Below, one piece after another: positions 1,942-57,590 of a stretch of DNA of 64,000 nucleotides; within the stretch, counting starts at the first letter, position 1, and each line of letters starts with the position of its first letter. The notes below the pieces were generated by a model, which was not told the origin of the DNA, made no database searches, and worked only from the letters and a program-made list of their open reading frames with translations. The position numbers were made by a program, and so were the translations under genes. Source of the stretch: Chloroflexia bacterium (GTDB lineage: Bacteria; Chloroflexota; Chloroflexia; QHBQ01; JADMIH01); the NCBI GenBank assembly GCA_036388595.1, contig DASVRN010000110.1, positions 8,953 to 72,952 on the forward strand, written 5' to 3'.

Positions 1942-2190
1942 GAAAGCAAGCCGCAGGTGCAAGACTACCGCAAAGCTGCACACAAGTGGAAAGGGGAGGA
2001 GCGGAACCATGTGGCCCGCTCCTCCCCCTTTCTGTTGCCTTATGACAGAAACCCTTTAGAAGCCGCAGCGCAACCCCATCCCCGCGCCACTTCCAACCCT
2101 CACCGCATCACGTTTCACGTTTCACGTTTCAGAACTTCCGTGCTACAAACAAGTGCAAAACCATGCACAATGTGGTATAATTACTGGTAG

Positions 2191-4801: not shown

Positions 4802-4810
4802 CGATACTGA

Positions 4811-4908: not shown

Positions 4909-4924
4909 GGGGATGTAAATTACC

Positions 4925-4988: not shown

Positions 4989-4992
4989 TGAA

Positions 4993-5028
4993 AAGAGGTC
5001 CACATGAAATTGTGGACCTCTTTTCTTA
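4993..5028 (+). terminator. Rho-independent terminator (probably the original gyrB terminator)
   Basis: 12-bp stem AAGAGGTCCACA/TGTGGACCTCTT with a 6-nt loop, followed by TTTTCTT. Confidence 0.6.
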
Positions 5029-5318
5029 TAAACTGAAGTATTACCCCCAGCTCTTATGCAGTTTGTGAATGGCAGCAATCTTCAGATGAGCCATGGCTAT
5101 AGAGGGCGTGCTTGGACCGTTGCTCCTCTTCTGTCGCGAAGTTATTCTGAGCTATAATTCGGTAAGCGTGGGAAACTGCCTCACGTCACATGGCAGGTGC
5201 GGGGAACGAATGCCGAGGGTTCCGGTGCCGAAATGCTAGCCTAGGGACCACCCCTCCGTGCTGGTCTACACTATCTATGGGGTGAACGCCAAAGAATAGG
5301 CTGAGGTCCCTGAGAAGG

Positions 5319-6248
5319 CTAGCGCGAGCACCCCAAAGAGTCAGCACACCACACCTGAACCAGTATTAGGTTGTTTGGGAAGCCAAATGAGTTGATAACA
5401 AAGTCCGGGTCCGAAGGCACGCTGGTCTGCAACGAAAAAGCACCTGCTTCATCTGTGGTAAAGGTGCCGATGGATTGCAGGGTCGCGTTGGTCCCGGCAT
5501 TTTGCCACAGTACTTCCCCAGACGTGTTGGGGCGCAACCCGCTCCCCCACACGCGAATCTTCTGCCCTGGCGTAACTTCCGTTGATGATGCGAACGCGTG
5601 CACCTTGAATGTTGGAACGTTCGAGTCGGAGTCGCCCCACTCGCCGGACTTCTGTTGGGCGCTCGGTCTCAACTCATCCTGAAAAGTTGCCTCCTGGTTC
5701 TGGGCAGGAGGGTTCTCAACTCCAGTGATTGAGATAGATACTGAGAGCCTAAGCTGCCCATTAGCTCCCTTCGCTACACTACCCCTGTCGAAGGCCAGAA
5801 GTGCGCCTCCTTCTGAAGTGAGATTCATGCGACTCCCATCATCGCTCATCGTAATTGTATATATGAATTTGGGACTAGCGTATATGGCGGGGCTGTAATC
5901 GACCTCGACGCTATCCTGACCAAACCACCGCCAATGAGAGAGCAGGGGATCACCACCTCCCTGCACTATTACCATGGTCCCCGTCTCTTTGAATTCCACT
6001 GTGTCACCATACTTCATAAGGCCTAACGGGTAGTTGCTGGTGGTGTCTCGTGACGAAGTTTGACCTGAGTATGCCCACTTACCAACGAGCGACGGATGCG
6101 ATGCAGCCGAATCATTGTTGACGACCGGTGCCGCTATTGGTGGCGTGGACGCCGCCATCGGTGACGGCGTGGCCTCGACACCTCCACAACCTGACAAGCA
6201 CGCGAGGAACAGAGCGAGCGACAGCAGAATAGTAATAAACCGTTTCAT
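5319..6248 (-). CDS. secreted lipoprotein, function unknown
   Basis: The N-terminus MKRFITILLSLALFLACLSGCGG carries a lipobox. No family was recognised. Confidence 0.55.
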   Translation of the reverse strand: MKRFITILLSLALFLACLSGCGGVEATPSPMAASTPPIAAPVVNNDSAASHPSLVGKWAYSGQTSSRDTTSNYPLGLMKYGDTVEFKETGTMVIVQGGGDPLLSHWRWFGQDSVEVDYSPAIYASPKFIYTITMSDDGSRMNLTSEGGALLAFDRGSVAKGANGQLRLSVSISITGVENPPAQNQEATFQDELRPSAQQKSGEWGDSDSNVPTFKVHAFASSTEVTPGQKIRVWGSGLRPNTSGEVLWQNAGTNATLQSIGTFTTDEAGAFSLQTSVPSDPDFVINSFGFPNNLILVQVWCADSLGCSR

Positions 6249-6356
6249 CTGTAACCCTCCGGTGCAAGTAGATAGTAGTTTCGCCAGTCCGCCAATGGGT
6301 AGATCTCCCCGCAGTGTGCTTCCGCGGCGCTAATTTGTAATATATCCAAGGCTCGA

Positions 6357-6403
6357 CACGAGTACAGATACCTGCGTCATAGCTACAGGTATCTGTACTC
6401 GTG
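6357..6403. promoter_or_regulatory. perfect 18-bp palindrome (CACGAGTACAGATACCTG / CAGGTATCTGTACTCGTG) about 110 bp upstream of the lipoprotein gene
   Basis: Read directly from the sequence. No U-run follows the stem, so a terminator role is unlikely; an operator role is possible. Confidence 0.4.
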
Positions 6404-6999
6404 CCCGCATTATCCCACTGTGTGCTGAACGCGTCAAGCAGTATTTGCACTAAGCACTGGATTCAAGACCGCCTCGACATACCGTGCAGCATACACTGCA
6501 TTACGGCACAGGCTCTGTGAGGCGCTAGACAGGTAGCCCGCGACATGGTAAATACCCGCTACTCTTGATAGCGGCTGTGTCATCGGGTCTTTTCTTCTAC
6601 CTGGACCGCTGCCCGAGCTGCCACCGCTTCATAAATGTGCGAGGTTCCCATAATTTCTGCCCGTAGTGCCAGGGCCCATTGAGGCGGAAGGCTATAGGTC
6701 GGAAGCCGCCACAATCAGTTTAGTACCTACAATGCTTGAGAAGTTCATCCAGGCGCACGCCGCTTGCCTGCCCCGGACACCCCGGCAAATATTCACCTGA
6801 TATTCACCCGCATATACCGCCCCTACAACCCCCCTGCCGTAAATTGATATTGCCGGACAGAACAGTGACGCCAAACGACGCGAAGCAAATCACCTTCACA
6901 GTTTCACTGTTCTGCACAGGCCACACAAAGCTAATGCTTATTGCGTGCGGCGAGTTGTCAATCGAAACCAGGCAATGCAACACAGAGGAGAATAAAACA

Positions 7000-7605
7000 A
7001 TGACACGAGATCTTCGTTGGCGCATCATCAGCCTTCAAGTATTGATGATAGTAGTTTTGGGCTTTGGCGCAGGGGCCATGTTTTTCGCGAACAATTTCAC
7101 TAACAGCCAGATCAAGGGTCAGCTTGCCCCTCAGCAGATCTCCTTCCCTAAGGACGTAGAGCCTACCATAGCAGAGATCAACGCCAAGTACCCTGATCTG
7201 CAAGGCTACATCGCTGACCTGCGCAACTATCAGGGCCAGCCGGTCATGAGTGGCAACCAGGCTCATGTATTCGCCGAGGCATACCTTGGAGTTCACGTCC
7301 GCGACATCGACAACGGCAAGCCTTATTCCGTGCTGTCCAGCGAGGCTCGCGTCGAGAAGGACCCCGAGTTGAAGGCCAAGAAGGATGCGATGGTGCAGAC
7401 AGCCTTCCGCGGCGAGACGCTCAGGTCGATCTTGAACCAGGCATGGGCATTCTCGGTGATGGGCGACATCGCACTGTACCTGGCTCTTGGCCTGATAGCC
7501 GCCACGCTCCTGGTCACCGCCGCCCTCGTCTTCGAACTGTTCTTCGCACCGAAGCGTGAAACCCAGGCCGTGCGGCTAGGCTCACTCGCCACCAACCGGG
7601 CGTAA
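7000..7605 (+). CDS. small membrane protein (two TM helices), function unknown
   Basis: ATG at 7000 is preceded by GAGGAG. There is an N-terminal TM helix and a C-terminal TM helix. Confidence 0.5.
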   Translation: MTRDLRWRIISLQVLMIVVLGFGAGAMFFANNFTNSQIKGQLAPQQISFPKDVEPTIAEINAKYPDLQGYIADLRNYQGQPVMSGNQAHVFAEAYLGVHVRDIDNGKPYSVLSSEARVEKDPELKAKKDAMVQTAFRGETLRSILNQAWAFSVMGDIALYLALGLIAATLLVTAALVFELFFAPKRETQAVRLGSLATNRA

Positions 7606-7634
7606 GACAACCGCGTAATACAACTCGGCACCTG

Positions 7635-7685
7635 CAAAGACGAAGACCGCCCTAGCACTAAGCAGCCAGGGCGGCCTTCGTCTTT
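7635..7685 (+). terminator. candidate stem-loop terminator after the 7000..7605 gene
   Basis: 19-bp stem with one mismatch and a 13-nt loop. The T-tract is weak. Confidence 0.3.
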
Positions 7686-7804
7686 GTCTGCCCACCGGGA
7701 GTCGCATGTAACAAGGCGATTATACCTTTCGCAAACCCAAGGGGATGCAAGATATGAATAGCCCGCCTGAAAGGATGGGTCTGCCTATAAGAAAGTGCCC
7801 CAAG

Positions 7805-7840
7805 CATGTGGGGCATGTGGGGCATGTGGGGCATGTGGGG
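7805..7840. repeat. (CATGTGGGG)x4 tandem repeat
   Basis: Four exact 9-bp units. Confidence 0.8.
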
Positions 7841-7872
7841 CACCCGGCGTACCGGTAAACTCTCCAGCCTTC

Positions 7873-8313
7873 TTATACAGTCTGTTCTTCCAGGACCTGC
7901 TTCAACCTTTGCAAATGCGCTCCGTCCTCCTTCTTCAAAATGAGTGCAACCAGGGGAAGCATTAGCTTCTTGATCCCCGCGGCTTTGATTTTGCAAACCA
8001 GGTCAATGCGCGTGCCGTCCCTTTCAGGGTGTAGTTTGTACCGGTAGACCGTCTCGACCCCATCAGTCACGTTTCGCATGGCGTATAGCTTAGGCTCGGC
8101 GTATTCGCTCACTTCCAACTCGGCCTGCTGTTCTTTGCCGCCCATCAAGCGGGTCTCGCGGTAGCGGGTGCCCACCTTCGTAGCCCCTTCCGTCAGCTTG
8201 ACCGAGCTTTTTACCGAGGGGACAATTTTGGGGGCGTTCTTCGAGTCAGTAATAAACTCGAAAACGCGCTCTGGGGTGCAGGCGATCCACTCACTCTTTT
8301 GAAATCCAGACAT
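7873..8313 (-). CDS. SRPBCC-superfamily (polyketide cyclase/AHSA1-like) protein
   Basis: 146-aa protein starting MSGFQKSEWIACTPERVFEFITD. It sits adjacent to an AraC/GyrI-like regulator, as is typical for this family. Confidence 0.55.
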   Translation of the reverse strand: MSGFQKSEWIACTPERVFEFITDSKNAPKIVPSVKSSVKLTEGATKVGTRYRETRLMGGKEQQAELEVSEYAEPKLYAMRNVTDGVETVYRYKLHPERDGTRIDLVCKIKAAGIKKLMLPLVALILKKEDGAHLQRLKQVLEEQTV

Positions 8314-12483: not shown

Positions 12484-12619
12484 TTGTCATTCTGAGCGTA
12501 GCGAAGAATCTCGTCCTCTACCGGGATGGTTCCACTTTCGTTTGGGACTCTGTTGCTGAAGGAAAGGTGGTATTTGGGTGCTGAAGGACGAGATTCTTCA
12601 CTGCGTTCAGAATGACAAG
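12484..12619. repeat. REP/BIME-like inverted-hairpin element, copy A (type 1 arms TGTCATTCTGAGCGTAGCGAAGAATCTCGTCC)
   Basis: About 32-bp arms in inverted orientation with a ~70-bp spacer. It belongs to the same family as the copies at 21968, 22907, 24623, 27480 and 63174. Confidence 0.8.
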
Positions 12620-15930: not shown

Positions 15931-16527
15931 TCAGAATGAGCCTGTTTTGACTTCCCCCGCACGTTTGAATGTAGCAATTATCACCCCACTTGGTGAAGAC
16001 TTAGCTTCAACCAGCGTATGAGAGGCAGGAATAGTACCTTTATCAAACAAGCGTTTGCCCATACCGAGTACCACAGGGAATATTTTGAGCCAGAATTCAT
16101 CAACCAGATCATGCTGCAACAATGTCTGAATGAGATTGCCACTGCCATGCACCTGCAGGTCGGGTCCCTCTTGTTGCTTGAGCTTTTTTATTTCCTCGGC
16201 AACGTCACCATTCAAAAAGATCGACTTACCCCACTCATGGCTGGTAAGCGTATGCGAAGCCACATACTTTGTTGCCTCGTTTATCGGGTTCTCCCCGCCC
16301 TCTTCTTGAGGCCAGTATGCTGCAAATATCTCAAACGTTTTCCTCCCGAGCAATAGATCAAATGGGCTGCTCATCTGCTCGGTCATTTCCTCGCCAAGGA
16401 ATTCGTCAAAATACGGGACCGACCACCCACCATAGGTAAAGTCACCGCTGGGGTCTTCAGTGGGTCCACCGGGCGCCTGCATGACGCCATCGAGCGTAAT
16501 AAAGGATAGCACAATAATCTTTCGCAT
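15931..16527 (-). CDS. dihydrofolate-reductase-like (RibD C-terminal/YyaP family) protein
   Basis: Full-length 198 aa starting MRKIIVLSFITLDGVMQAPGGP with GRKTFE and VHGSGNL motifs. GC content is clearly below that of the neighbouring genes. Confidence 0.75.
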   Translation of the reverse strand: MRKIIVLSFITLDGVMQAPGGPTEDPSGDFTYGGWSVPYFDEFLGEEMTEQMSSPFDLLLGRKTFEIFAAYWPQEEGGENPINEATKYVASHTLTSHEWGKSIFLNGDVAEEIKKLKQQEGPDLQVHGSGNLIQTLLQHDLVDEFWLKIFPVVLGMGKRLFDKGTIPASHTLVEAKSSPSGVIIATFKRAGEVKTGSF

Positions 16528-16678
16528 AAAGTCATTCTACCACATTGAGCATTCATAAAGCCTGCCCACAATGGTGCTGGGACAGGCTCTTTGTTTTCAT
16601 GGGGTCGCTCAGGTCCAGTCTATATGCGAACTACTACTTTCATTTCTCATCATCCGCCGCTGCTTCTGCGTCACCTAC

Positions 16679-21967: not shown

Positions 21968-22184
21968 TGTCATTCTGAGCGTAGCGAAGAATCTCGTCCT
22001 CCAGCACCCAAATAGCCCCTTTCCTTTTGCCAGCAACGTACTGTGGTGCTACACTGCCTCACTGCCTCACTGTTGCAGTGTAGCACTGCTGTAAGGGTGC
22101 TATGGTGCTACGGTGCTGTGGTGCAATAGAAAGGGGTAACATCTAGGTGTAGGGCGAGATTCTTCGCTGCGCTCAGAATGACAA
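21968..22184. repeat. REP/BIME-like inverted-hairpin element, copy B (type 1 arms) with nested internal inverted repeats
   Basis: The arms TGTCATTCTGAGCGTAGCGAAGAATCTCGTCC and GGGCGAGATTCTTCGCTGCGCTCAGAATGACA lie between convergent genes. Confidence 0.8.
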
Positions 22185-22906: not shown

Positions 22907-23362
22907 TGTCATTTCGAACGTAGTGAGAAATCTCGTCCCTTATCAGGATGTTACAGCTTTCCTATGGGACTCTGTTGCTGAAGGACGAGATTCTTCGCTA
23001 CGCTCAGTACCTAGCTAACGAAGGAATGTCAGCTAATACAGGCACATCAGGTGGCAGCCGACGCCCCACGATTGAAATCGGGGGCTACACTTTACCAAGT
23101 CCCACAAGGGGACTCTCCTCTACCCACCTACTCTCTAGAAAGCGGTCCTGATGCATGAAGGCAGTCCCGTAGGGACTTTGCAACGTGTGTAGCCCCCGAT
23201 TTCAATCGTGGGGCGTCGCCTGGCACCACACGTGGCTTCATGGGGCTTCTCACACGCATGGTGCCCTGTTGGCTGACATTCCTTCATTAGCATGGTACTC
23301 AGAATGACAAGATGGGTTTTGGGTGCTGAGGAGCGAGATTTCTCACTGCGTTCGAAATGACA
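22907..23362. repeat. composite REP/BIME-like element (type 2 outer arms) interrupted by a nested ~290-bp MITE
   Basis: Outer arms TGTCATTTCGAACGTAGTGAGAAATCTCGTCC and GAGCGAGATTTCTCACTGCGTTCGAAATGACA. The inner type 1 arm is split into CGCTCAG|...|TCAGAATGACA by an insertion. Confidence 0.7.
23008..23295. mobile_element. nested MITE-like insertion with ~25-bp terminal inverted repeats (TACCTAGCTAACGAAGGAATGTCAG / CTGACATTCCTTCATTAGCATGGTA) and a probable TCAG target duplication
   Basis: It interrupts a REP-like arm. The flanks reconstitute the uninterrupted arm sequence. There is no coding capacity. Confidence 0.5.
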
Positions 23363-24463: not shown

Positions 24464-24622
24464 GTCTTGGGTCGTAACACCGCACAGATACGACACTGGC
24501 AACTTGCACCGCAGAGACGCAGAGAGCCTGCCCTGAGCGAAACCGAAGGGACGCAGAGGGTGCGCAGAGATAAGGTAAGGGTTTAGCGGCTCTATTAGGA
24601 TGCGTGGTACCCTATTCCCCTT

Positions 24623-24756
24623 GTCATCCTGAGCCGTTGCGAAGGATCTCAGATGCCACGCCCACCGCTATTTGGAACCTTCCGCACCAGTGTGCCTCAC
24701 GCTCAACAGCACCCCTCCCCAACTTCTTGAGATCCTTCGCTGCGCTCAGGATGACA
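24623..24756. repeat. REP/BIME-like inverted-hairpin element, copy E (type 3 arms TGTCATCCTGAGCC...GAAGGATCTC)
   Basis: Inverted arms. It is itself flanked by inverted GCAGAGA-type heptamer arrays at 24508-24578 and 24836-24862. Confidence 0.75.
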
Positions 24757-24979
24757 GGGGGTGGGTTGATCCCTGGTAATGGCACATAGGTGCAAGCCTC
24801 CGCTTCCTCCACAAACCCACATCAACTCTGCGTAACCTCTACGCTCTCTGCGTCTCTGCGGTGAATAATCTTTTCCCGCTCCCGTGTCTATACCGACCCA
24901 CTATATGTGCTGACACGTGTTGGCCCAGCATGTATAATAGGGCGGCATGTAGGGTACGTACTAGTGGAGGCCTGAACCC

Positions 24980-25495
24980 TTGGACGTCGCTTCAGTTGTG
25001 ATACGTGAAGCTCGCACCTCAGATGCTGCGGGGTGCCTTGATTTCCTGCGCGAGATTACCGCCGAACCTGACATCCTGATTCCTGCCTACCCGGACGAGT
25101 GGGACTTCCCTGTGCAGGATGAAGAGGCTTTTATCCAGGACATGCTGGCTACGCCCAATTGCCTGATGCTGGTCGTGGAAGCCGAGGGGAGGATAGCGGG
25201 CATCCTGACCTGTCACGGCGGCAAGCGGCGCGCTGTGCAACATGCAGTGATGCTCGGTATCTCGCTACACAAGGACTACCGCGACCGTGGACTGGGCCAC
25301 CAGTTGATGCAACGCGCTATAGATTGGGCCGGGGCTACCGGCATCACACGTATCGAGCTATTTGTTTACGTCGAGAATGCAAAGGGCATCCACCTGTATG
25401 AGAAGTTCGGCTTCAAGGTCGAAGGCCGCCGCACCCGTGCCTACTACCATCATGGTAGGTACATAGACGACCTGGTTATGGCGCTGTTGCTTTAG
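24980..25495 (+). CDS. GNAT-family N-acetyltransferase
   Basis: The acetyl-CoA-binding motif region (RGLGHQLM...GITRIELFVYVENAKGIHLYEKFGF) is present. Confidence 0.8.
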   Translation: MDVASVVIREARTSDAAGCLDFLREITAEPDILIPAYPDEWDFPVQDEEAFIQDMLATPNCLMLVVEAEGRIAGILTCHGGKRRAVQHAVMLGISLHKDYRDRGLGHQLMQRAIDWAGATGITRIELFVYVENAKGIHLYEKFGFKVEGRRTRAYYHHGRYIDDLVMALLL

Positions 25496-25660
25496 ACGAT
25501 GGACGATAGACGATGGACGATGGGAGACCAAAACGCAAAGACGCAAAGAACGCAAAGGACGCGCAAAGAGGATTGTTGTTGGGAAGGGTGCTGACCTCTA
25601 CTCAGTCCTCAGTCCTCAGTCCTCAGTCCCATCGTCCATCGTCCATCGTCCATCGTCCCC
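25496..25660. repeat. STRR-like heptamer tandem-repeat hairpin array: (GACGATG)n ... (CCTCAGT)4 (CCATCGT)4
   Basis: Tandem 7-mers. The outer arrays are inverted complements. A conserved core GGATTGTTGTTGG sits between them. Confidence 0.85.
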
Positions 25661-25676
25661 AAAGGAGACTTACTAG

Positions 25677-26678
25677 ATGAGAATTGCCCTGGATGCAATG
25701 GGGGGCGACCACGCTCCGCTCGAGACGGTGAAGGGGGCTATCGAGGCCGCGCGGGAGTACGGCATCGAGGTGGTGCTGGTGGGGCAGGAGGCCGCTATCC
25801 AGGCTGAGCTTGCTAAGGTCGATACATCGGGTCTCAAGCTCACGATTGAGCCTGCCGCCTCCGTCATCCCGATGGACGAGCACCAGCCCTCTACGGCGTG
25901 GCGGCGGCAGCGCGATTCGTCTCTCACCGTGGGTTTGCAGTTGCTGGCCGACCGCAAGGTGGACGCGCTCGTGTCGGCGGGCAACACCGGCGCTGTGGTG
26001 TCGGGGGGCACGTTCGTGCTGCGGCGCATCGAGGGCATAGACCGTCCCGCGCTGGGGGTGCCGTTCCCGGCGATGGGCGATATAGGCAAGATATTCCTCG
26101 TGGACGTGGGGGCTACCCCTGACGCCAAGCCCCACTACCTGCTTCAGTGGGCGCGCCTCGCCTCCATCTACATGGAGCGCGTCTACGACGTGAAGAACCC
26201 GCGCGTGGGCCTTGTATCTAATGGTGAGGAAGAGATCAAAGGCTCGGAGTTGGTGCGCGAGACGTTTCCGTTGTTGCAAAATAGCGGCCTCAACTTCGTG
26301 GGCAACGTGGAAGGGAAGGACGTGCCCAACGGCGTGGCCGACGTGGTGGTGACCGATGGCTTCACCGGCAACGTGCTCCTCAAGACCACGGAGGGCGTCG
26401 CCAAGATGATCTTCGACCTGCTCCGCGCCGAACTGACTTCGAGCATGTTGAGCAAGCTGTTCGCCGCCGCCCTGCGTCCCAACTTCCGGCGCATAGCCTC
26501 CCGCCTGGACTACGCCGAGTATGGCGGCTCTATCGTCATGGGCGTGGACGGCCTGCTCATCAAGCCGCACGGCCGCTCCAACGCCAAGGCGATCAAGAAC
26601 GCCATCCGCGTAGCCAAAAGCGGGGTCGAGCAGGACGTGATGAGCATCTTCCGCCAGGTGGGGGCTGCTGGACGATAG
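25677..26678 (+). CDS. plsX: phosphate acyltransferase PlsX
   Basis: Full-length PlsX (MRIALDAMGGDHAP...SAGNTGA...GVDGLLIKPHGRS). Confidence 0.9.
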   Translation: MRIALDAMGGDHAPLETVKGAIEAAREYGIEVVLVGQEAAIQAELAKVDTSGLKLTIEPAASVIPMDEHQPSTAWRRQRDSSLTVGLQLLADRKVDALVSAGNTGAVVSGGTFVLRRIEGIDRPALGVPFPAMGDIGKIFLVDVGATPDAKPHYLLQWARLASIYMERVYDVKNPRVGLVSNGEEEIKGSELVRETFPLLQNSGLNFVGNVEGKDVPNGVADVVVTDGFTGNVLLKTTEGVAKMIFDLLRAELTSSMLSKLFAAALRPNFRRIASRLDYAEYGGSIVMGVDGLLIKPHGRSNAKAIKNAIRVAKSGVEQDVMSIFRQVGAAGR

Positions 26679-26825
26679 GAGACGGAAACGCCAAGACGCA
26701 GAGACGCCAAGGCCGCGCCAAGTTTAGGATTGTTGGAAAGAGTGCTGCCCTGTACCCTCTACCCACTATTCAGTCCTCATCACTGCTATCGTCCATCATC
26801 CATCGTCTGCCCTCTATCGTTCTCG
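26669..26825. repeat. STRR-like heptamer hairpin array (GACGATA/GACGCAGAGACGCCAAG ... CATCGTC) with a GGATTGTTGG core
   Basis: Same architecture as 25496-25660. The two arrays bracket plsX. Confidence 0.75.
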
Positions 26826-27479: not shown

Positions 27480-27620
27480 TGTCATCCTGAACGCAGTGAA
27501 GGATCTCAGATGTTCCTCTTATCGCTGCGGTGAACCTTCAGCACCCCACCTTTGTTGCTCAAGGTTCGACGCGATCCGTGTGCCACTTTCTTGAGATCCT
27601 TCGCTACGCTCAGGATGACA
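27480..27620. repeat. REP/BIME-like inverted-hairpin element, copy F (type 3 arms TGTCATCCTGAACGCAGTGAAGGATCTC)
   Basis: Inverted arms between divergent genes. Confidence 0.75.
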
Positions 27621-27741: not shown

Positions 27742-28803
27742 ATGAAGATACTCTCTGTTGTAGGCGCACGGCCCCAATTTATCAAGGCTGCTCCCGTGAG
27801 CCGGGCCATGTCGAGGGCAGGGGTCGAAGAGGTGTTGTTGCACACGGGCCAGCACTACGACCCTGCGATGTCCCAGGTCTTTTTCGCGGAACTGGACATT
27901 CCGGCCCCTCGCCACAACCTGGGAGTAGGTTCCGGCTCTCATGCAGGCCAAACGGCTGCCATGCTGGTGGGCATCGAGCAAGTGCTGCTGGACGAAAGGC
28001 CTGACTACCTGCTGATATACGGCGACACCAACTCCACGCTCGCCGGGGCGTTATCGGCGGCGAAGCTGGGCGTGCCGGTGGCCCACGTCGAGGCGGGGCT
28101 GCGCTCCTACAACCGTGCCATGCCGGAGGAAATCAACCGCGTGGTGGCCGACAGCCTCTCGCACCTGCTCTTCTGCCCGACAGCCGTGGCCTCGGCCAAC
28201 CTGCAACGCGAAGGCATCACGCGCGGGGTGTTCGTGGTCGGTGACGTGATGTACGACGCTATACTCGACTCTCTGCCACGAGCCGAGGCGATTGCTCCTT
28301 CGCTCCTGTCGCGGATTGGGGTGGAGAGCGGCGGGTACTTGCTGGCGACGGTGCACCGGGCCTCTAACACCGATGACCCGCGCAACCTGGCGAGCATAGT
28401 AGGGGCGCTGAGCGACTCGGGCGGGCCTGTGGTCTTCCCGGTGCACCCACGGACCCGGAGAGCGCTGCAACAGGCAGGCGTGGTCCCCGGCGAAAACGTG
28501 CGGCAGATAGACCCGGTGTCGTACCTGGAGATGGTGGCGCTGGAGAAGCACGCCCGCAAGATACTCACCGACTCCGGAGGCGTGCAAAAAGAGGCGATGT
28601 GGCTGGCGGTGCCCTGCATCACCATGCGGGATGAAACCGAATGGGTGGAAACGGTGGAACTGGGTTGGAACACCCTCACCGGCACCGACCCCGCCCGCAT
28701 ACTGGCAGCCATCCAGGCCCCGCGCCTCCACTCTACCCCGCCCGACGTGTACGGCGATGGACACGCGGCGGAGAACATTGTGAACGTGATATGCAACGCG
28801 TAA
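27742..28803 (+). CDS. wecB: UDP-N-acetylglucosamine 2-epimerase (non-hydrolysing)
   Basis: MKILSVVGARPQFIKAAPV...HTGQHYD...HVEAGLRS. Full length. Confidence 0.85.
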   Translation: MKILSVVGARPQFIKAAPVSRAMSRAGVEEVLLHTGQHYDPAMSQVFFAELDIPAPRHNLGVGSGSHAGQTAAMLVGIEQVLLDERPDYLLIYGDTNSTLAGALSAAKLGVPVAHVEAGLRSYNRAMPEEINRVVADSLSHLLFCPTAVASANLQREGITRGVFVVGDVMYDAILDSLPRAEAIAPSLLSRIGVESGGYLLATVHRASNTDDPRNLASIVGALSDSGGPVVFPVHPRTRRALQQAGVVPGENVRQIDPVSYLEMVALEKHARKILTDSGGVQKEAMWLAVPCITMRDETEWVETVELGWNTLTGTDPARILAAIQAPRLHSTPPDVYGDGHAAENIVNVICNA

Positions 28804-28885
28804 CACGTAACACGTAACTCGTAACGCGTAACATCGAGGTGTCATTCAGGAATTACGAGTTATGCGTTACGAGTTACGAGTCACC
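28796..28885. repeat. STRR-like heptamer hairpin array: (CGTAACA)n inverted against (GTTACGA)n
   Basis: It overlaps the wecB stop codon and lies between wecB and the aminotransferase gene. Confidence 0.8.
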
Positions 28886-37626: not shown

Positions 37627-38925
37627 GTGCTGTCCAGGTTTGCTCTTGTAATCCGGTCGTTGTGGGGCTGGGCTTTGTCCCGGCCCGTGCTTGTGGTCGG
37701 CGCCCTGACGTTGCTGGCCTTCGCGCTGCGCATCGGCTGGCTGGTGGCGTCAGGCGGCCTATACGCCCCGCCGCAAGAAGACGAGATCGACTACAACGAG
37801 CTGGCGAAGAGCCTGCTGTCGGGCCAGGGCTACAGCCTGGAGGGCCAACCGCAGGTGAACCGCTCCCCCGGCTTCCCGGCGCTGCTCTGGCTGGTCTACA
37901 GCATCTTTGGTGTCCAGCCCATCGCGGCGCGAGTCGTACAGGCCGCACTACTGGCGGGCGCGGTGCCGCTCCTGTACTACATTGGCCGCAGGGGGTGGAG
38001 TCCGAGCGTGGGCCTACTTACGGCCCTGGTGTTCGCGCTTTACCCGTTCAGCATCTTCTGGAGCCGCTACCTGGCGACCGAGAACCTGCTGGTGGTGGTA
38101 TACGCCGCCCTGGCTGCTTTGCTGGTCTCCCCTGCGCGTGCCGGGGGGTGGAGGACTCTTGCGGGTGGGGTAGTCCTCGGCCTGGCGCTGTTGACCCGCC
38201 CGACGGCGATACTGGTGGGGCTGGGGCTTATCCTATGGCTGGTGCTGGTGCTGCCCCGCCGCGAAAAGCTGCTGAAACCGGCTTTGCTGCTGGCCGGTAC
38301 GGTTCTCGCATTGTCGCCCTGGCTCGTGCGCAACTTCGTGGAGTACAACCAGTTCATTCCGCTGACCTCGGGCTACGGTTCGTCGGCGGGCGGCTACGTC
38401 TTCTGGATAAGCAACAACGAGTACACGGCGCAGCCTGGGGAGCGGTGGGGGCGCTACGTGCCTGCTGAAATGCTGCCCGATTACCGGGAATACGTTTCGT
38501 TGGCAGACAATCCAGGTCTGCTGGACAGGAAGGGATACGAGTACGGCCTGCGCTACCTGGCATCCCACCCGCAGGACGTGCCGGTGCTGCTGCTGGGTAA
38601 GTTCTTGCGCTTCTGGAACGTCTTTCCGGGTGCCACGCTCACGACGAGAGCAGCGGGCGCGCTGACACTGGTGCTGCTCCCCTTCTTCCTGGTAGGCTTG
38701 TGGGCTTGCTGGCGCGGCAGGTACAACGGCGGCATGGTGCTGGTCTTCATTACGGGTACGATGCTCATCGGGCTGATCTTCTGGGCCGACACCCGCATCC
38801 GCGCCCCGGCGGAACCTTTCATCGCACTCGCCGCCTCAATTGGGGCCGTCCGCCTGACACAACGCGAACGGGCGGCAGAAAAAGCTCTGCCGCCCGTCAC
38901 GAATGGAGAAACGCCCGCGTCCTAG
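37627..38925 (+). CDS. ArnT/PMT-like (GT39/GT83) integral-membrane glycosyltransferase
   Basis: Multi-TM protein with an N-terminal DEIDY loop motif like those in dolichyl/undecaprenyl-phosphate-sugar transferases. It overlaps the oppF stop codon. Confidence 0.6.
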
Positions 38926-40145
38926 TGGTGCACTACCGTCGTCTCGTCCTTGCCGAGGAGCGAGCTTGTTTCGCCCGGCAGAGGCATCTTGGTGAACGGT
39001 GCGAAGTGGCAGGCGACGAAGTGCTCCAACTGGCCGGGAGGGGCCACGTTGCGCCATTCGGGCACCTGCTGCTTGCAGATGTCCTGCGCCAGCCAGCAGC
39101 GGGTGTGGAAGCGGCAGCCGGTCGGCGGGTTGAGCGGCGAAGGCACGTCACCCTTGAGGATGATGCGCTCGCGCCTGATCCTGGGATCGGGCACCGGGAT
39201 GGCCGACAGCAGCGCGTGAGTGTAGGGGTGCTGGGGGTTGGCGAAAAGCGCGGTGCGCTCCGCAAGCTCCGCCATCTTGCCCAGGTACATCACGCCCACG
39301 CGGTCGGATATGTGCTCTACCACGCTCAGGTTGTGCGCGATGAAGAGGTAGGTCAGGCCCATCTCGCCTTGCAGGTCCTTCAAGATGTTGAGCACCTGCG
39401 ATTGGATCGACACGTCGAGGGCCGACACCGGCTCGTCGCACACGATGAACTGGGGCCGCAACACCAGCGCGCGGGCGATACCGATACGCTGCCTCTGGCC
39501 GCCTGAGAACTCGTGCGGGTAGCGCTTGGCATGCTCCGGGAGCAGACCCACGTGGGCCAGCGCGTCGTACACGCGGTCCTGGCGCTCGCTCTTGGAAATG
39601 CCATGTATAATCAGGCCCTCCCCGATACTCTCGCCAATCGGCACGCGCGGGTCGAGCGAGGAGAAGGGGTCCTGGAAGATGATCTGCATGTCCTTGCGGG
39701 CCTTCTTCAGATCGTCGGCCTTGAGGTCGAACAGGTTCTTCCCCTGGAAGCGCACCTCGCCGCCGGTAGCGGGGGTGAGCCGGAGCAACGTGCGGCCAAC
39801 CGTGGTCTTGCCGCAGCCCGATTCTCCCACGAGGCCCAGCGTCTCGCCCTGGCGGATGAAGAAGCTCACGTCGTCGACCGCTTTCGTCCAGGCCACCGTG
39901 CGTTGCAGGAGGCCGCCGCGTACCGGGAAGTATTTCACCAGCCGGTCCACTTCGAGCAGCACGTCCGACTTCTTGCCGTTGGACGCCCTGGCCGCCTCAG
40001 TCGTGGCCCCGCCCATAGCTATTGTGGCAGCGCCACCCGACCCGTTGCTGCTACCCTCCAGCGAACCGTCGGCCCCCGGCTCGGTGGGAGTGGGTGAGCC
40101 GAGGTCTTCCGGCGAGTGCAGTGATGTGCTTTGCTGGTCGCTCAT
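38922..40145 (-). CDS. oppF: oligopeptide/dipeptide ABC transporter ATP-binding protein (OppF/DppF type)
   Basis: Walker [10 protein letters not shown], the LSGGQRQR signature, Walker B and a C-terminal oligopeptide_F domain with a Cys cluster. ATG at 40145. Confidence 0.85.
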
Positions 40146-40163: not shown

Positions 40164-40236
40164 TGGACGATAGACGATGGACGATGGACGATAGCGTATC
40201 CTACCATCGTCTACCGTCCATCGTCCGTCGTCTATA
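40164..40236. repeat. STRR-like heptamer hairpin (GGACGAT)n/(CATCGTC)n lying between oppD and oppF
   Basis: An inverted heptamer array in the 86-bp oppD-oppF spacer. Confidence 0.8.
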
Positions 40237-50900: not shown

Positions 50901-53209
50901 CTGTAGTCGTAAAAGTATTTCATGTCGTGGACTGTACTCTCTCCGGGGTTCGGAGGCACGGTACCAAGGCCGTCCTGTACCCTCTTGGCCCGGACCCTCC
51001 TGTACTGGTCGCCGGCATCTCCCCCGGCGGCATCATAGTAGAAGCCGACCGCGCCCCCGTAGCCGTTGTAAGCCCACCATAGATGACCGTGGTCCTCATG
51101 AGGGAAGGGCGTCACGGTCGCGCTGGGCGTGGGGCTTGGGGTGGGTTCACCCACCGGGTTCCCCGGCTGTACGTAGCGGAAGGTGGTCTTCGGAAGCTTC
51201 GTAACCCCGTCGCTACCTATGGGCACGATCCCGGCAAGTGTCAGGTGCGGGTACTGCACGTTGGGGCTGGCAGTACTGGTGAGCACTATGCTGTAATCTT
51301 GCTCGAACTGGTAGGCCCGCAACAGCGAGTAGGCACCGCCCGCGGTAGGGAGGCGCTTGATCTGCACACCGTCTACGCGCCGGGTCTGGTAGATACCTTC
51401 GTCCATTTCGGTGCGTCTCACATCGCTGATCGGCACGCTGTTGGTAATGATCGTCCGGTCAACGATAGAGAACGTAGCTTGAAGCTTATCGCCGTTGGCC
51501 CCCCAGGTTATCTGGTAAGGATATACGGCCTGAGTCCTGTTGTTCGGTATAGGTGTGGCCTGAAGCGTCTGTGTGCGGTCCTCATATTTGTAGGTGTAGT
51601 TGATGGCATTGCCGTGCACGTCGGTGGCTGTGGTCAACATCCAGCGGTATGTCGTGAAGGGATTAGGAGTGCCGTCGCAGGTGCTGTGTGAAGGATCGGG
51701 TGCCCAATTGTAGCGATCCTCGATGAGGGCATTGCTCTTGAACTCGTAGCGGGTGCCACTCTTGTCCCAGGCCTCCCACCAGTCAGTGGTGCGTACCGTG
51801 CCAGAGGCTGAGTTGACGCCAGCGTGGTACTGGATTCTGACGAATTGTTCCTTTTCGGTATGCCAGTAGCCATCGGTGCCCTCTATCAGATCGCCGGTGG
51901 TGCCGTCTAGGACGATGGAGGCTATCCAGGGATGATAGCCGGGATCATCCACGTTGTCCGCGCAACCCAGTCGGTCGGGGTAGTGGCGTTGGATAGCCGC
52001 AATATAGTTGGTTGACAAGGTCCAACCCCAACCAACGCTGGAAGGCCCCTGCTGGCTGATATCCACCCGGTCTATGCTACCCGAGTTGTAGCTCAACATC
52101 ACGCGCGGTCCAAAACCGCCGGGTCCAGGGGGCAACTCAATAGGGAACCCCACGTTTGCCGTGCCGCTCTGTAGGTTCGTCTCGTAGTTCTTTATCGTGG
52201 GCAGGTAGTTGCTGATGATGTCGAAGCTGTCGGTTACAGCGGCCAACCCTACCAGGCTGGTCGTTGCAATGAGCTGATTAGTATCCGAATCCCAGGTGCT
52301 GGGAATCTCCTCCCAGGATTGCTTCTTTTCGTTGTACATGTAAGCCCGCAGTGGGAAGCCTGTGACGCCCGAGAGAGCCAGCACCTGTGGGTCCACCTTC
52401 CACACCAGGACGGCCGGTTTGTTGAGTTGATCTACGTGCGCGCCTTTCTTCGTGTCCGCGCTTCCTTGGGCATGGGTAGCCACTATCTCGTAGGCATAAG
52501 CTAAACGACGACCCCCCGCAGCCGTCTTTTTAGCATTCTTTTGGCTCACATCTTTTCTTGTTCGTACCTCAACTTCGCTATCGTCTGCAAGCGCACCCGC
52601 ACGTAGCCCAACCGCAAAGGACCTATCGGAACTGACTACTTTACCGCCTGTCTTTGCCACGACTCGCGCGGTTGTAGCGTCGGGGGGCGCACCTGACGGT
52701 CCTCCAGGCGTACTGCTAGAACCCGGCGTTGCGCTCGCGGCAGGTAGTGAATTGATCTCGGCTAGGAGGGCTTTGCGCTCCCTATCAATGTTCTGGTCCT
52801 CGTAATTGGTGTCTGGAATGGGGGTGAGGGTAGGCGCAGCTGTTGGTAGTTGCTTGGTGGCCGTGTAGATGGGGCTGCCATCCGGGAGAGTAGGCTGTCG
52901 TTTGGCTTGATTGGCCTGTGCCAACGAACCTTCCAGAGACGAAACCTGCCCGGGTTGGCTCGGCTGGAGTGAGCCCCGCGCTATCGCAGTCTGGCTCCAG
53001 GTGTTGGTGAAGGGGGTGAGCACCAACGACACGACGGAGATGAGACTGAGCAGCCAGTAGTTACGCTTCCTGCGATGTCGCATCACCTGACGGAACAAGG
53101 TGAAGGGAGCGTGCCTGCGTGAGACCGCCCTTGAGGAGTGGGTGCGGGTCGCTGAGGTGATAGCCGCTGGCTGGCGATTGGAGGGGTACATTTCTAAGCT
53201 CCTTGTCAT
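44912..53209 (-). CDS. giant RHS/YD-repeat polymorphic toxin (SpvB/TcB-like N-region, YD-repeat shell, RHS core, alpha/beta-hydrolase-like C-terminal toxin domain)
   Basis: 2765 aa. N-terminal signal/TM helix. SpvB-like motif (IELPPGPGGFGPRVMLSYNSGS...GWGWTL). Dozens of YD repeats. RHS core end (ARYYDPELAHFVSADP...NRYLYAHGNPLRFIDQLG). The C-terminal tip of ~240 aa carries GHSEGG. Confidence 0.9.
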   Translation of the reverse strand: MTRSLEMYPSNRQPAAITSATRTHSSRAVSRRHAPFTLFRQVMRHRRKRNYWLLSLISVVSLVLTPFTNTWSQTAIARGSLQPSQPGQVSSLEGSLAQANQAKRQPTLPDGSPIYTATKQLPTAAPTLTPIPDTNYEDQNIDRERKALLAEINSLPAASATPGSSSTPGGPSGAPPDATTARVVAKTGGKVVSSDRSFAVGLRAGALADDSEVEVRTRKDVSQKNAKKTAAGGRRLAYAYEIVATHAQGSADTKKGAHVDQLNKPAVLVWKVDPQVLALSGVTGFPLRAYMYNEKKQSWEEIPSTWDSDTNQLIATTSLVGLAAVTDSFDIISNYLPTIKNYETNLQSGTANVGFPIELPPGPGGFGPRVMLSYNSGSIDRVDISQQGPSSVGWGWTLSTNYIAAIQRHYPDRLGCADNVDDPGYHPWIASIVLDGTTGDLIEGTDGYWHTEKEQFVRIQYHAGVNSASGTVRTTDWWEAWDKSGTRYEFKSNALIEDRYNWAPDPSHSTCDGTPNPFTTYRWMLTTATDVHGNAINYTYKYEDRTQTLQATPIPNNRTQAVYPYQITWGANGDKLQATFSIVDRTIITNSVPISDVRRTEMDEGIYQTRRVDGVQIKRLPTAGGAYSLLRAYQFEQDYSIVLTSTASPNVQYPHLTLAGIVPIGSDGVTKLPKTTFRYVQPGNPVGEPTPSPTPSATVTPFPHEDHGHLWWAYNGYGGAVGFYYDAAGGDAGDQYRRVRAKRVQDGLGTVPPNPGESTVHDMKYFYDYRGGNTNTSDLSADADLANTQPLYEPGHQFRGFAWVREQDPMGQVEDHYFTQDDTFKGPEWRVQAGKELTFTDIITGTPSSNTAWSTSAGVFAATDPYNPANGAWKIEPSGPNPTPFAKRALGVEDGTDVSARFMVRTAGGNPTVTPAPAGWISATWRLENTNGDYWGLQVYHRDIPSNEPPEAFAKVVWKRNGTIGERDLFYGQALRPRLDSPIFADNWYRLQLHTSADGRFALELYDDQVAHHKNYIQIKSGDPASTGGVNGLIPSFDARKNWTFVTRITSYDTANNNYSILLDDYTETRTVYGQSDSVYESKIPSSQTTTADKSEWRVGYANNADGMLIRFVPVTEKWTSEYVKSWPNQVAKRTRTTYTYDAYGNPKTINEYGNVDPNLDAFNNPGPADERSTVFEVYPNTTSWIVNKVGQTRTYSGTYGAPGAVWIAEVQNGYDGQTDYTLPPTKGDLTLVKQVGILNNVRNGQIASQQFGYDTYGNKTFTKDPNNNQTSVEYDTYYRSFPLTTTLPNGRTEITRYNFSTGYNISGVPLDVPTSRTDMNGTVTESRYDVFGRPLKTWIPTNNLGSQSVPNEEYTYSDVNPSTGFKAPFFVSYKRQLDGTTSSWETRWYDGIGRVFESLTPKDNGSAVLVSTTYTKTGQVESVTNPYTVTLAGPTASVTPDPNQPKTTKFYDGAGRNTMVVNPDGTNVVYDYMSNNIDRDYSCVELYDETVGLNQKELRCNDLLGRAVLVNQWDEDPTTTYYVYDMLDHLTKVKRLSAVGDVTMTYDGLGRKNQMVDSDSGTWQYDYDAAGNVTARRDAIYLANPTSPENGKHQVFMEYDSMNRIKAKYYGSAHYSNSPTVVRVPDVLYRYDNDLGDAATKYSWGRLRHVEVTVQGQGARQANGHGYEYDVRGLVVADVVTTSYGTRDYRVGYTFDTGGRITSTTYPDPETTHEQTTFLYNAQGMGLPRSIATNNTVTTAKPVYDATYNARGQLETLVQGTQFGSGDMLTTAYTYDDASTKRGWLTKTKVTTAAGATTHLELNVAYKLDGNISQISQVSGGTSANPTFTNNFTYDGLERMRSFTTNNTAVFTSEQVSFDQWPRMTSRTIGGVQYNYTYDATHVDRITAFKGNTYAYDDVGNQTSAVRGGSTQNRTYDPQNRVTRIVEGNTTTEFVYDGEGKRLVQSIITSTLAIPASKTALFVVDNPASLNTADTAIRSHLQGLGYTVTVADDDLVASSDATGKTLVFISATSLSGSINTKLRNVAVPVIVCEPYMLDDMGMTDTPSTQMGAYAHWGVRIADPSHPLAGGLTGDVTVTNNTVGGVVWGIPNANAIKAATLWDNSTLSPIFAYAAGVQMYGLTAPAKRVGFYMYNDMGAYHNENGWRLFDAAVNWAAAPVTKSALFVVDAPNSMNASDTIIRNRLRDIDYNVTVVDDDLLTSADATGKSVVFVSATSMSTAIGTKLRNVTVPVINCEPYLMDDMGMTDTPTTQMGAYGHLAVRIADPAHPVADGFTGDVTVSTNTTGGVVWGIPNANALKVATLTDNATLSPIFAYTTGAQMYGLTAPAKRVGFYLYNDAAIYQTAEGRRLFDAAVNWAAASVDVKRTLYVGNLYEEQLTGPDQSATAHPYTNFYFLGSKMVGMRRVNYPADNGQQRMVGDHLGSTTLLVDTSPTPAVLYRAYYKPYGEVAWQTGTSRTSVGFTGQRLDAGTKLMYFGARYYDPELAHFVSADPTTQNPSNAMDYNRYLYAHGNPLRFIDQLGFGPEDYYIFVQGCTSSTACDRDDPSDWGEYGEQLKKMYDEEGWGVIGTFGGQTITMPFEVWAKTHVKYVGAKTLAGGAEGIRKTIEGITDHGPGVDIHLLGHSEGGAAVAKYLLEAADGKGADSRVKSAVLIDAPLVTYQPGWVVLGGFGRKINELGSAASTLGVNVLTVDTANDWVSHPPIHGIPEVSDPRYPKGHGLAMPDHENHDRVEFPPSDAQSAWHDHTSRFMAEQTRDFLSEVWK

Positions 53210-55580: not shown

Positions 55581-55750
55581 GACGAAACCGCAAAGGCGCA
55601 AAGAGCGCAAAGGTACGCAGAGATTAGGTCGGTGTTCTAACAAGAGGACCGGAGTACGACATCATGTACTCTGGTCCTCTTACTACTCTCCAAACCTTAT
55701 TCTTAACCTTGGCGCGTCCTCTGCGTCTCCGCGTCCTGGCGTTTCAACTC
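55581..55750. repeat. STRR-like heptamer hairpin array (CGCAAAG)n / (CTTTGCG-like)n with a central 16-bp stem-loop
   Basis: Between the tdk 3' end and the ogg 5' end. Confidence 0.75.
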
Positions 55751-56605: not shown

Positions 56606-56712
56606 GGACGATAGACGAGTGGTTAGTGGTTAGTGGTTAGATAGTATCCAACAATCCTAACCTTGGCGCGTCCTTTGCGTTCTTTGCGTCTTTGCGGTTT
56701 CGTCTCCTACCA
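56606..56712. repeat. STRR-like heptamer hairpin array (GGTTAGT)3 ... (CTTTGCG)n
   Basis: Tandem 7-mers. It includes the CCAACAATCC core. Confidence 0.75.
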
Positions 56713-56776
56713 TGGCCCGTTAAAGCAAAAGAGACCGGACTTAATCTCCGGTCTCTTCTTCGCTAACCCAATCGAG

Positions 56777-57112: not shown

Positions 57113-57135
57113 TGTTGTTTTACCTCACTTGTTTA

Positions 57136-57222
57136 ATTACGAATTACCAATTATCCGTTACGAACCACTAATTACCACTTCCGAAATACCTACGTAATTC
57201 GTAATTCGTAATTAGTAATTCG
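57136..57222. repeat. STRR-like heptamer hairpin array (AATTACG)n / (CGTAATT)n
   Basis: An inverted heptamer array between rpmE and rpmA. Confidence 0.8.
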
Positions 57223-57496: not shown

Positions 57497-57517
57497 TGCT
57501 TTCTCCCTTCGGGGAGA

Positions 57518-57587
57518 GTGGTTAGTGGTTAGTGGTTAGTGGTTAGCAAAGAGCTTCTAAACACTAACCACTAACCACTAACCACTC
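57518..57587. repeat. STRR-like heptamer hairpin (GGTTAGT)4 / (ACTAACC)3 between rplU and rpmA
   Basis: It is followed on the transcribed strand by a CUCCC-CGAA-GGGAG hairpin that includes the rpmA SD sequence. Confidence 0.85.
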
Positions 57588-57590
57588 CAT

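Follow-up and report, generated by a model that had tools for sequence, protein, structure and literature searches.

What builds the long hairpins that separate neighbouring genes, including genes of conserved operons, in a Chloroflexia genome, and what keeps them there? The question arises from the spacer between the ribosomal-protein genes rplU (L21) and rpmA (L27), at positions 57497-57590 of a 64-kb stretch of DNA (the window; all positions are counted from its first letter), in which tandem copies of a 7-nt unit face tandem copies of its inverted complement across a short loop. An original prediction, made from the letters of the window, had listed ten loci of this kind and likened them to the short tandemly repeated repetitive (STRR) heptamers of cyanobacteria. 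Using graded relatives gathered through PlsX and L21 homologues, we find that the host is an uncultured Chloroflexia lineage in which the arrays are a clade-wide trait. Comparison of the sequences shows that hairpin shape is kept among related species while the sequence changes wholesale. On balance, and with modest confidence, we read the elements as self-renewing palindromic heptamer repeats, akin to hairpin-forming doublets of repetitive extragenic palindromes (REPINs) and to MITEs (miniature inverted-repeat transposable elements), which are filtered by selection and represent a Chloroflexia counterpart of the cyanobacterial STRRs.

Heptamer arrays in the window and in its relatives

Counting as an array any run of at least three tandem 7-nt copies, Tandem Repeats Finder and an independent period scan identified 13 period-7 arrays in the 64-kb window, against 0.0 expected from 30 Markov shuffles. 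The same scan returned no array with a period of 4-6, 8 or 10-12 in the window and two 9-mer arrays, both within coding sequence. For 12 of the 13 arrays an inverted partner lies within ~250 nt, and the paired arrays form stems of 26-33 bp with folding energies of -31 to -83 kcal/mol (z -4 to -10). The window holds eight canonical heptamer units, and all eight independent heptamer loci are intergenic (P ~7e-6, under a crude gene model with 77% coding).

The elements are of two kinds. Simple hairpins, which consist of an array, a short loop and an inverted array, occupy the L21-L27 (GTGGTTA), L27-L31 (AATTACG), wecB-degT (CGTAACN) and oppD-oppF (GACGATR) spacers. A modular composite family is represented by four window copies (A, B, C and E; Table 1) that share GACGATR/YATCGTC ends and a common module, in the order (GACGATR)n, GGAGAC-GAAAC-(CGCAAAG.)n-GGACGCGCCAAG, TTAGGATTGTTGG, a second, unrelated heptamer array and (YATCGTC)n. 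Six of the ten loci that had been listed as heptamer inverted pairs are strict pairs, while the other four proved to be related composite or octamer elements. Tandem Repeats Finder reads the arms at 24508-24862 and 55581-55750 as octamers (CGCAGAGA and CGCAAAGG, respectively) rather than heptamers; 26669-26825, a decayed copy, lacks any array of three or more units; and 56606-56712 has kept a single heptamer array within a composite element, its remaining arms being vestigial. The quoted repeat units and the shared core GGATTGTTG are present in the sequence, the arrays do yield spurious open reading frames (ORFs; a GRWTMDD-type translation was seen), and Pfam agrees with the gene contexts that had been named, namely rplU-rpmA, rpmE-rpmA, oppD-oppF, wecB-degT and both sides of plsX.

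Cyanobacteria have been known to contain heptameric repeats since 1990, and since 2007 heptamers have been recognised as the long simple repeats most over-represented in bacteria. The likeness to STRRs holds in kind, in that contiguous 7-nt units occur in at least three copies and belong to several unit families that are dispersed and mainly intergenic. The host and the units set the window apart: its context is high-GC (~59%) and non-cyanobacterial, the nearest genomes are metagenome-assembled genomes (MAGs) of Chloroflexia, and to our knowledge none of its units is among the published STRR units, CCTCAGT being one mismatch from CCCCAGT.

The window lies on a metagenome contig from ENA. Among named genomes the nearest is a MAG from soil with the label Chloroflexia bacterium; its L21 is 98% identical and its DNA ~89-93% identical. 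Clade members with PlsX at least ~80% identical carry 1-8 arrays per 10 kb; the density falls to 0.5 period-7 arrays per 10 kb in relatives with PlsX 76% identical and to none in those at 62%. Other bacteria, covered by 78 loci and 1.38 Mb, gave nine arrays or 0.065 per 10 kb, and isolated examples occur in other Chloroflexota (L029 and L005) and in one Clostridium (L025). Within the clade there are at least 15 unrelated unit sequences. A scan of a metagenome collection with the composite module GGAGACNRAAMCGCMARGRSGCRRAGA returned only two loci, L087 among them, both without heptamers, and the module is therefore genus-restricted. A BLAST search of element A against plasmids gave no match.

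Arrays are also found in phage. A scan of viral contigs with (GACGATG)3 gave 15 loci, among them the 86-kb phage contig IMGVR_UViG_3300022562_001969 (L098 / L110), which carries genes for both terminase subunits (large and small), for a DNA methylase and for ParB and has nine heptamer arrays in 10.6 kb. The viral contigs L099 and L112 are comparably array-rich. In L094, a more distant clade member, heptamer hairpins at 7498-7585, 5366-5514 and 4265-4390 occupy the rpmH-rnpA, jag-yidC and pfkB-jag spacers of the conserved rpmH-rnpA-yidD-yidC-jag cluster.

The hairpins systematically break short-read metagenome assemblies: clade contigs with L21 or plsX are mostly shorter than 3 kb (0.5-3 kb), and three conspecific contigs from other samples (L083, L084 and L085) each begin inside the L21-L27 hairpin, in its loop. 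That clade contigs often end inside hairpins might be taken to mean that the hairpins are themselves artefacts of short-read assembly, but identical internal sequences in independent ENA, JGI, NCBI and Logan assemblies, and orthologous hairpins in many MAGs from different projects, make the probability of this negligible.

Turnover of the elements and a proposed mechanism

Distant Chloroflexota have compact L21-L27 spacers of 15-40 nt with no hairpin, and in the relative L093 the GNAT and plsX genes overlap (ATGA) and plsX adjoins wecB. It follows that the hairpins were added to junctions that had been compact. Once present, they differ in length by multiples of seven. Relative to the window, L002 has 14 nt more in the L27-L31 spacer (two further units), 7 nt more in element E (one further CTAACCA unit) and six versus four copies in the arms of the L21-L27 hairpin. 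The wecB-degT array, for its part, carries on the AACGCGT 3' end of its gene.

Sequence changes affect the two arms in concert. Among the four nearest lineages the L21-L27 unit reads GTGGTTA, GTGGATA, GTGGTCA or GTTGTTA. Each of these single-base variants is fixed in the copies of one arm and, as its complement, in those of the other; L113, with its degenerate arms, shows this least completely. The L117 hairpin contains three differing units that are mirrored exactly across 33 bp. Central segments also flip: the 10-nt L21-L27 loop, AAGCTCTTTG, is present as its exact reverse complement in L002, and the orthologue of element B downstream of plsX, intact in L088, has its inner segment inverted between unchanged arms in L090. 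At the centre of element D, a 14-bp hairpin (55644-55679) differs between the window and L002 by two compensatory pairs.

Whole elements are exchanged as well. Relatives at 83-87% DNA identity carry unlike elements in the same spacer, so that between GNAT and plsX the window has composite A, L088 a GTAACAC hairpin and L090 a degenerate hairpin, and the wecB-degT element likewise differs among these three genomes. Element A of the window is 87% identical to an L088 element that lies across plsX, on the other side of the gene. The units GACGATR, GGTTAGT, TCACGTT and AACACGT turn up in several genomes at sites that are not orthologous. Decay is seen in element B and in the L27-L31 spacer of L116-L118, where the array has been lost or replaced.

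Insertions within genes have also been retained. The lon gene of L094 (15334-18009) contains a composite element in frame at 16397-16574, just before the Walker A motif; the alignment of this Lon to Thermus Lon (PDB 7p6u) is split into query residues 10-352 and 421-852, and the insert of ~65 low-complexity amino acids lies exactly over the arrays. In L093 an NB-ARC/TPR gene (4717-8115) harbors a (GGGATTA)3 ... (AATCCCC)5 hairpin in frame at 6167-6296, which translates as ...TNPQSPIPNPQSPIP... and whose unit equals the Nostoc GGGGATT repeat. The preference for gene boundaries that had been predicted thus applies to all eight window loci but is not obligatory in the relatives.

From these patterns we propose the following mechanism. 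Replication slippage would grow and shrink the arrays in 7-nt steps, and copying of an array to its inverted complement would supply the partner arm. Intrastrand template switching or arm-to-arm recombination would keep both arms identical, and the same processes could flip the loop or the inner segment. Hairpin cassettes, and the composite with its heptamer arm, GGAGAC/CGCAAAG module, GGATTGTTGG core, second array and partner arm, would spread or convert between sites, after which selection would remove all but the harmless insertions. Survivors would lie past a stop codon and ahead of the following ribosome-binding site or, now and then, in frame where a protein loop tolerates them. In the intergenic case, perfect stems that lack a U-tract would loop the insert out of the mRNA without terminating transcription, would leave a ribosome-binding window of 18-26 nt free and would hold the stop codon and the next start codon close in space. 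Where coupling is tight, as at the rplU-rpmA junction, selection might then maintain stem integrity in the manner of a constructive-neutral ratchet; a half-decayed insert would part the stop codon from the next start codon or expose the mRNA. Such maintenance at coupled junctions would explain why structure persists despite sequence turnover.

Polymerase slippage has been suggested previously as the cause of heptamer repeats (PMC4692102, PMC4679880). Template switching (PMC8794818; PMC5453318), in which one arm is copied to the other, can account for multi-base 'compensatory' changes and perfect stems and fits the inverted loops; it has been described for rRNA and for eukaryotic mutation clusters, whereas for the hairpins here it is a proposal. 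Two further loci bear on how such arrays might start. In the Clostridium sp. locus L025, TTAGTAG/CTACTAA arrays surround an ordinary terminator at 5740-5900, and in the metagenome contig L087 (600-800) CGCAAAGG/CCTTTGCG octamer arms lie 3' of a terminator; terminator hairpins may seed palindromic arrays of this type.

Placement, pairing and competing explanations

The stems have a constant position relative to the flanking genes. Each begins 0-6 nt past the upstream stop codon, or includes it: the wecB stop codon (TAA) falls within the first unit of the wecB-degT hairpin, and that of plsX (TAG) within GACGATAG of element B. Each ends 18-26 nt before the next start codon (22 nt 5' of the oppF start codon for the oppD-oppF hairpin), leaving the Shine-Dalgarno sequence outside the stem. 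A perfect TTGACA-17-TATAAT promoter lies 5' of L21 and none between L21, L27 and L31; similarly, a promoter is found 5' of GNAT and none before plsX. The original view that arrays lie within operons is borne out by this arrangement, and since neither junction series contains an internal promoter the hairpins should be transcribed within polycistronic mRNAs.

Could the stems then stop transcription? An intrinsic terminator is a stem-loop followed by a U-run, and no T-run was found 3' of any heptamer hairpin, nor did a terminator scan score any; the terminator reading was dropped on this ground. The organism does use ordinary U-tract terminators, after L31 and after a helix-turn-helix (HTH) gene at 1990-2035. 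U-tract-less ('I-shaped') terminators or attenuators that impose operon polarity would fit very stable stems directly after stop codons. We consider them very improbable, given the canonical terminators in the same DNA and given that transcripts ending in the L21-L27 spacer, beyond which there is no promoter, would leave L27 unexpressed. Rfam gave no match at the gathering score across the window; at a relaxed E-value it gave just sub-threshold generic hairpin (miRNA precursor) models, on both strands.

The L21-L27 junction permits the closest comparison. In the window the two arms (57516-57546 and 57557-57587) are 31 nt each and 97% complementary, and the hairpin folds as gene-strand RNA with -54.9 kcal/mol (z = -10). 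Between the large stem and the L27 start codon is a small hairpin whose segment, CCCGAAGGGAGA, is essentially invariant in all seven relatives, the sole change being a G-to-A substitution in the loop in L117; its helix is 100% paired with zero covariation. This small hairpin is absent in distant Chloroflexota and could itself be an element of translational control.

Several observations weigh against our account of the elements as self-renewing repeats filtered by selection. All seven clade members have a period-7 hairpin in the L21-L27 spacer, with differing units, near-perfect stems and folding energies of -38 to -62 kcal/mol, whereas neutral decay with deletion bias alone would predict some empty sites. 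In the seven-member alignment, 93.7% of cells are paired versus 73.8% in shuffles, none of 500 shuffles reaches the observed value, and sliding the 3' partners by 1-3 columns as a control leaves 33-49% paired; 24 of the 29 stem pairs are changed on both sides. Taken at face value, covariation of this kind is the textbook mark of an RNA structure under selection. In the phage contig every GACGATR array has the sense orientation and lies immediately 5' of one of the ribosome-binding sites of successive genes, mostly unpaired; this layout hints at an orientation-dependent role. Nor are the elements hypermutable in the short term: L083, L084 and L085 are identical to the window in the two to three downstream spacers that each covers, and the copy-number variation originally expected, of the variable-number tandem-repeat kind, is thus seen as 7-nt steps between relatives but not at the level of strains. 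No transposase, REP-associated tyrosine transposase (RAYT) or other mobilising enzyme was found among the ORFs of the 64-kb window. Inspected by eye, the sequences that border the oppD-oppF hairpin and elements A, C and E reveal no consistent target-site duplications, the sole candidate being a possible TTCAA at element C. Finally, while the anatomy, the folds and the differences between relatives were observed, slippage and template switching, mobility and all consequences at the RNA level are suggested by patterns in sequence.

These points lend weight to an alternative in which the hairpins would be adaptive intercistronic RNA. They could act as RNase III-type processing sites, as barriers to 3' exonucleases in the manner of the malE-malF REP, or as devices that hold the stop codon near the ribosome-binding site, and would thereby set the stability or coupling of cistrons; their repeat nature would be merely the mode of construction. 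Besides the structure retained under sequence turnover in all seven lineages, this alternative draws on the constant placement between stop and start codons, on the invariant small hairpin, which covers the L27 Shine-Dalgarno sequence and stacks on the large stem, on the promoter-less junctions, on the sense orientation of the phage arrays ahead of ribosome-binding sites and on the precedent of protective intercistronic structures (PMC5927463).

We nevertheless regard it as somewhat unlikely. Palindromic DNA copying gives the same covariation signal as a selected RNA. One-sided (G-U type) changes in the L21-L27 alignment amount to four cells versus 41 double changes, and transversion-type doubles are common, which fits the copying of DNA arms better than stepwise compensation in RNA. 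Several of the aligned sequences are probably replacements, not descendants. Optimisation for the sense strand is also not apparent: across 18 spacers, the sense fold is favoured in eight and the antisense fold in ten (mean +2.6 kcal/mol). The composite module is sense-oriented relative to transcription in all four window copies but inverted in L090, and the bias is not significant. Caution towards a selected RNA is called for by the rarity of one-sided changes and the lack of advantage of the sense fold, together with the loss or replacement of the L27-L31 hairpin in three lineages and the decay of element B. Other spacers have taken unrelated elements, some elements lie inside coding sequence, and the more distant Chloroflexota manage with their short L21-L27 spacers.

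The strict period of 7 over many units invites a further explanation at the level of DNA. A host or phage protein (gyrase, a nucleoid protein or a regulator of 7-bp-phased units, for example) might bind the elements as platforms or as cruciforms, comparable to the binding of bacterial interspersed mosaic elements (BIMEs) and REPs by IHF and gyrase. The recurrence of GACGATR, TCACGTT and GGTTAGT across genomes and in phage is in keeping with this, as are the unpaired arrays that adjoin promoters 5' of gyrB and lon. With the many unrelated units of the clade there is no single recognition sequence, units change freely at an orthologous site and no candidate protein was identified, all of which render a binding platform improbable.

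A bolder version of the repeat reading goes further. The elements would form an undescribed class in a family-level soil Chloroflexia lineage and at least one phage, fluid in sequence, constant in structure, with arms homogenised in concert, flipping, mobile and kept at particular operon junctions. Of these the rplU-rpmA stem, found in all seven lineages and coaxial with the invariant Shine-Dalgarno hairpin, would have acquired a coupling or processing role for ribosomal-protein mRNAs, possibly with a dedicated enzyme. We hold this to be doubtful.

Element anatomy, known repeat systems and meaning

Table 1 Positions, strands and composition of the window features discussed in the text
Feature	Position	Strand	Composition or context	Basis or fold
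L21	57591-57905	(-)		Pfam
L27	57224-57496	(-)	ATG at 57496	Pfam
L31	56777-57112	(-)		Pfam
L21-L27 hairpin	57516..57587	(-)	(GUGGUUA)4, 10-nt loop, (UAACCAC)4; begins 3 nt past L21 stop codon	
Small hairpin	57504..57515	(-)	UCCC-CGAA-GGGA, also read as CUCCC-GAA-GGGAG with 6 bp; overlaps L27 Shine-Dalgarno, abuts large stem	
L27-L31 spacer hairpin	57135..57222	(-)	(AAUUACG)4 and degenerate inverted partner (GUAAUUN)n	-30.6 kcal/mol, z -4.4
L31 intrinsic terminator, canonical	56721..56758	(-)	~10-13 bp stem, then UUUUGCUUU	sequence and fold
Composite element E	56606..56712	(-)	between L31 terminator and tdk (thymidine kinase)	sequence
Element D	55581..55750	(-)	tdk-OGG spacer; CGCAAAG-type octamer modules on both arms	
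Composite element A	25495..25660	(+)	GNAT-plsX	-82.6 kcal/mol, z -8.8
Element B	26669..26825	(+)	just 3' of plsX; decayed copy of composite family	
wecB-degT hairpin	28795..28884	(+)	(CGUAACN)5, loop, (GUUACGA)4	-37.1 kcal/mol, z -6.8
oppD-oppF hairpin	40166..40235	(-)	(GACGRUR)4, 13-nt loop, (YAUCGUC)4	-43.4 kcal/mol, z -6.4
OppD/F-type ABC ATPases	40232-41419 and 38922-40145	(-)	both ABC_tran and oligo_HPY	Pfam
Composite element C	41836..42066	(-)	3' of DUF711; 13-copy GGACGAT array, (GAGTTAT)4.6, CGCCAAG module, 4-copy partner arm	
Nested element F	24508..24862		CGCAGAGA octamer arms around inverted pair of second repeat family (GTCATCCTGAGC...GAAGGATCTC)	
Unpaired (TCACGTT)3 array	2108..2131	(+)	5' of gyrB promoter	

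The composite copies differ in their completeness. Element A consists of (GACGATR)4, the GGAGAC/CGCAAAG module, a GGATTGTTGTTGG core, (CTCAGTC)4 and (CATCGTC)4. Element E retains a vestigial GACGAT arm followed by GGAGAC-GAAAC-(CGCAAAG.)3-GGACGCGCCAAGG-TTAGGATTGTTGG, (CTAACCA)3 and a YATCGTC arm. The stem of the neighbouring L31 terminator is retained in L002, with a different loop. The unpaired array upstream of gyrB has three perfect units in the window versus two degenerate units at the orthologous L090 site, and its CATCACGTTTCACGTTTCACGTTTCA string is also found 3' of lon in L094.

A second dispersed repeat family, TCATYCTGARCGNAGNGARGRATC, is present in 11 window copies versus 0.01 expected, at 12487-12615, 21970-22181, 22909-23360, 24620-24754, 27482-27618 and 63175-63308, and also occurs in L088, L059 and L096. 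Its copies form REPIN/MITE-like inverted pairs 100-450 nt apart, some of which enclose 8-mer arrays (CACTGCCT / GGTGCTAT, 22052-22124) or are enclosed by CGCAGAGA arms. The site at 22909-23360 is a nested palindrome of ~450 nt with the second family as its outermost pair, a middle pair at 23003-23036 / 23269-23302 (34 nt, 85%) and an innermost pair at 23040-23090 / 23187-23237 (51 nt, 88%).

Other features of the window lie apart from the arrays. A giant ORF of 2765 aa (44912-53209, minus strand) matches SpvB weakly and the RHS repeat below threshold, which suggests a toxin-complex or polymorphic-toxin-like protein. Directly 3' of gyrB, at 4161-4801 on the plus strand, an MNT-like nucleotidyltransferase and a HepT-like RNase are paired, probably as a toxin-antitoxin module; the nucleotidyltransferase gene is kept at the same position in L090 and L091. 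A 54-nt tandem repeat (60417-60529; 2.1 copies, 93% identical) lies within ORF 60188-61321, which has weak similarity to the Rax2 beta-propeller.

Heptamer repeats of several other bacteria share part of this anatomy. No long simple repeat is commoner in bacteria than the heptamer (Mrazek 2007, as cited in PMC4679880 and PMC4692102). According to PMC4692102, Calothrix PCC 7601 has three heptanucleotide STRR families and Nostoc PCC 7120 a GGGGA(T/C)T STRR that also lies between pecE and pecF; the function of the Nostoc heptamers is still speculative (bioRxiv 10.1101/2022.06.06.494920). Like these cyanobacterial repeats, the elements described here comprise several kinds of 7-nt tandem units that are dispersed, mainly intergenic and found within operons as well, and L093 uses the Nostoc-type GGGGATT/AATCCCC. 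They differ from them in their Chloroflexia host, in the inverted pairing of nearly every array, in the composite element and in the concerted change of arms. The GGGAATC repeats described for Xanthomonas (Rehm et al. 2015, PMC4692102) likewise have the over-represented repeat length, that of the heptamer; they occupy the same spacers in related species with variation in length and sequence, as here, and occasionally form inverted pairs; that system is built on one G-rich unit with G-quadruplex potential, whereas many units that are not G-rich, with inverted pairing as the rule, are found in our clade. In marine Beggiatoaceae, TAACTGA occurs as direct repeats 5' of start codons, and among 170 sets a single inverted case is reported (MacGregor 2015, PMC4679880). 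Those heptamers too adjoin start codons, in part within ribosomal-protein operons, and a number of them lie inside ORFs; the phage contig L098 shares their layout of sense arrays just 5' of the ribosome-binding site; a single unit in direct repeats there contrasts with hairpin pairs of many units in the hosts here.

REPs, BIMEs and REPINs (PMC3116915, PMC3184786), which can stabilise upstream mRNA, are likewise extragenic inverted doublets that form long hairpins, occur in many copies and can sit between cistrons. REPs have a conserved sequence of 20-40 nt, a GTAG/CGTC tag and a RAYT partner, in contrast to the interchangeable heptamers found here, whose arms differ by locus and species; no RAYT was seen in the 64 kb. 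The sole sequence common to copies is the composite module, in four of them, and composites A, B, C and E resemble MITEs in being present in several copies with a core flanked by terminal inverted repeats. Rickettsia palindromic elements (RPEs; PMC3184786) are, like the insertions in lon and the NB-ARC/TPR gene of the relatives, palindromic repeats in frame in protein genes. Mycobacterial interspersed repetitive units (MIRUs; PMC3184786) share the location in intercistronic gaps of polycistronic operons, with ends that overlap the flanking stop and start codons. Both differ in being fixed-sequence units of 40-150 nt, not 7-mer arrays, and MIRUs are direct repeats, not hairpins. In the literature searched we found nothing on paired heptamer hairpins, the composite module or the concerted evolution of arms in Chloroflexia.

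The clade offers an unusually clean natural experiment, in which one operon junction in seven lineages carries hairpins of unlike units, and in which concerted evolution, loop flipping, gene-internal insertions and phage copies stand side by side. Two questions become directly testable in it: the mechanism, with slippage and arm templating set against selection, and the consequence for the RNA in terms of processing, stability and coupling. Because the arrays create both spurious ORFs and spurious 'covariation', they also matter for the annotation of MAGs and for pipelines that search for noncoding RNAs.

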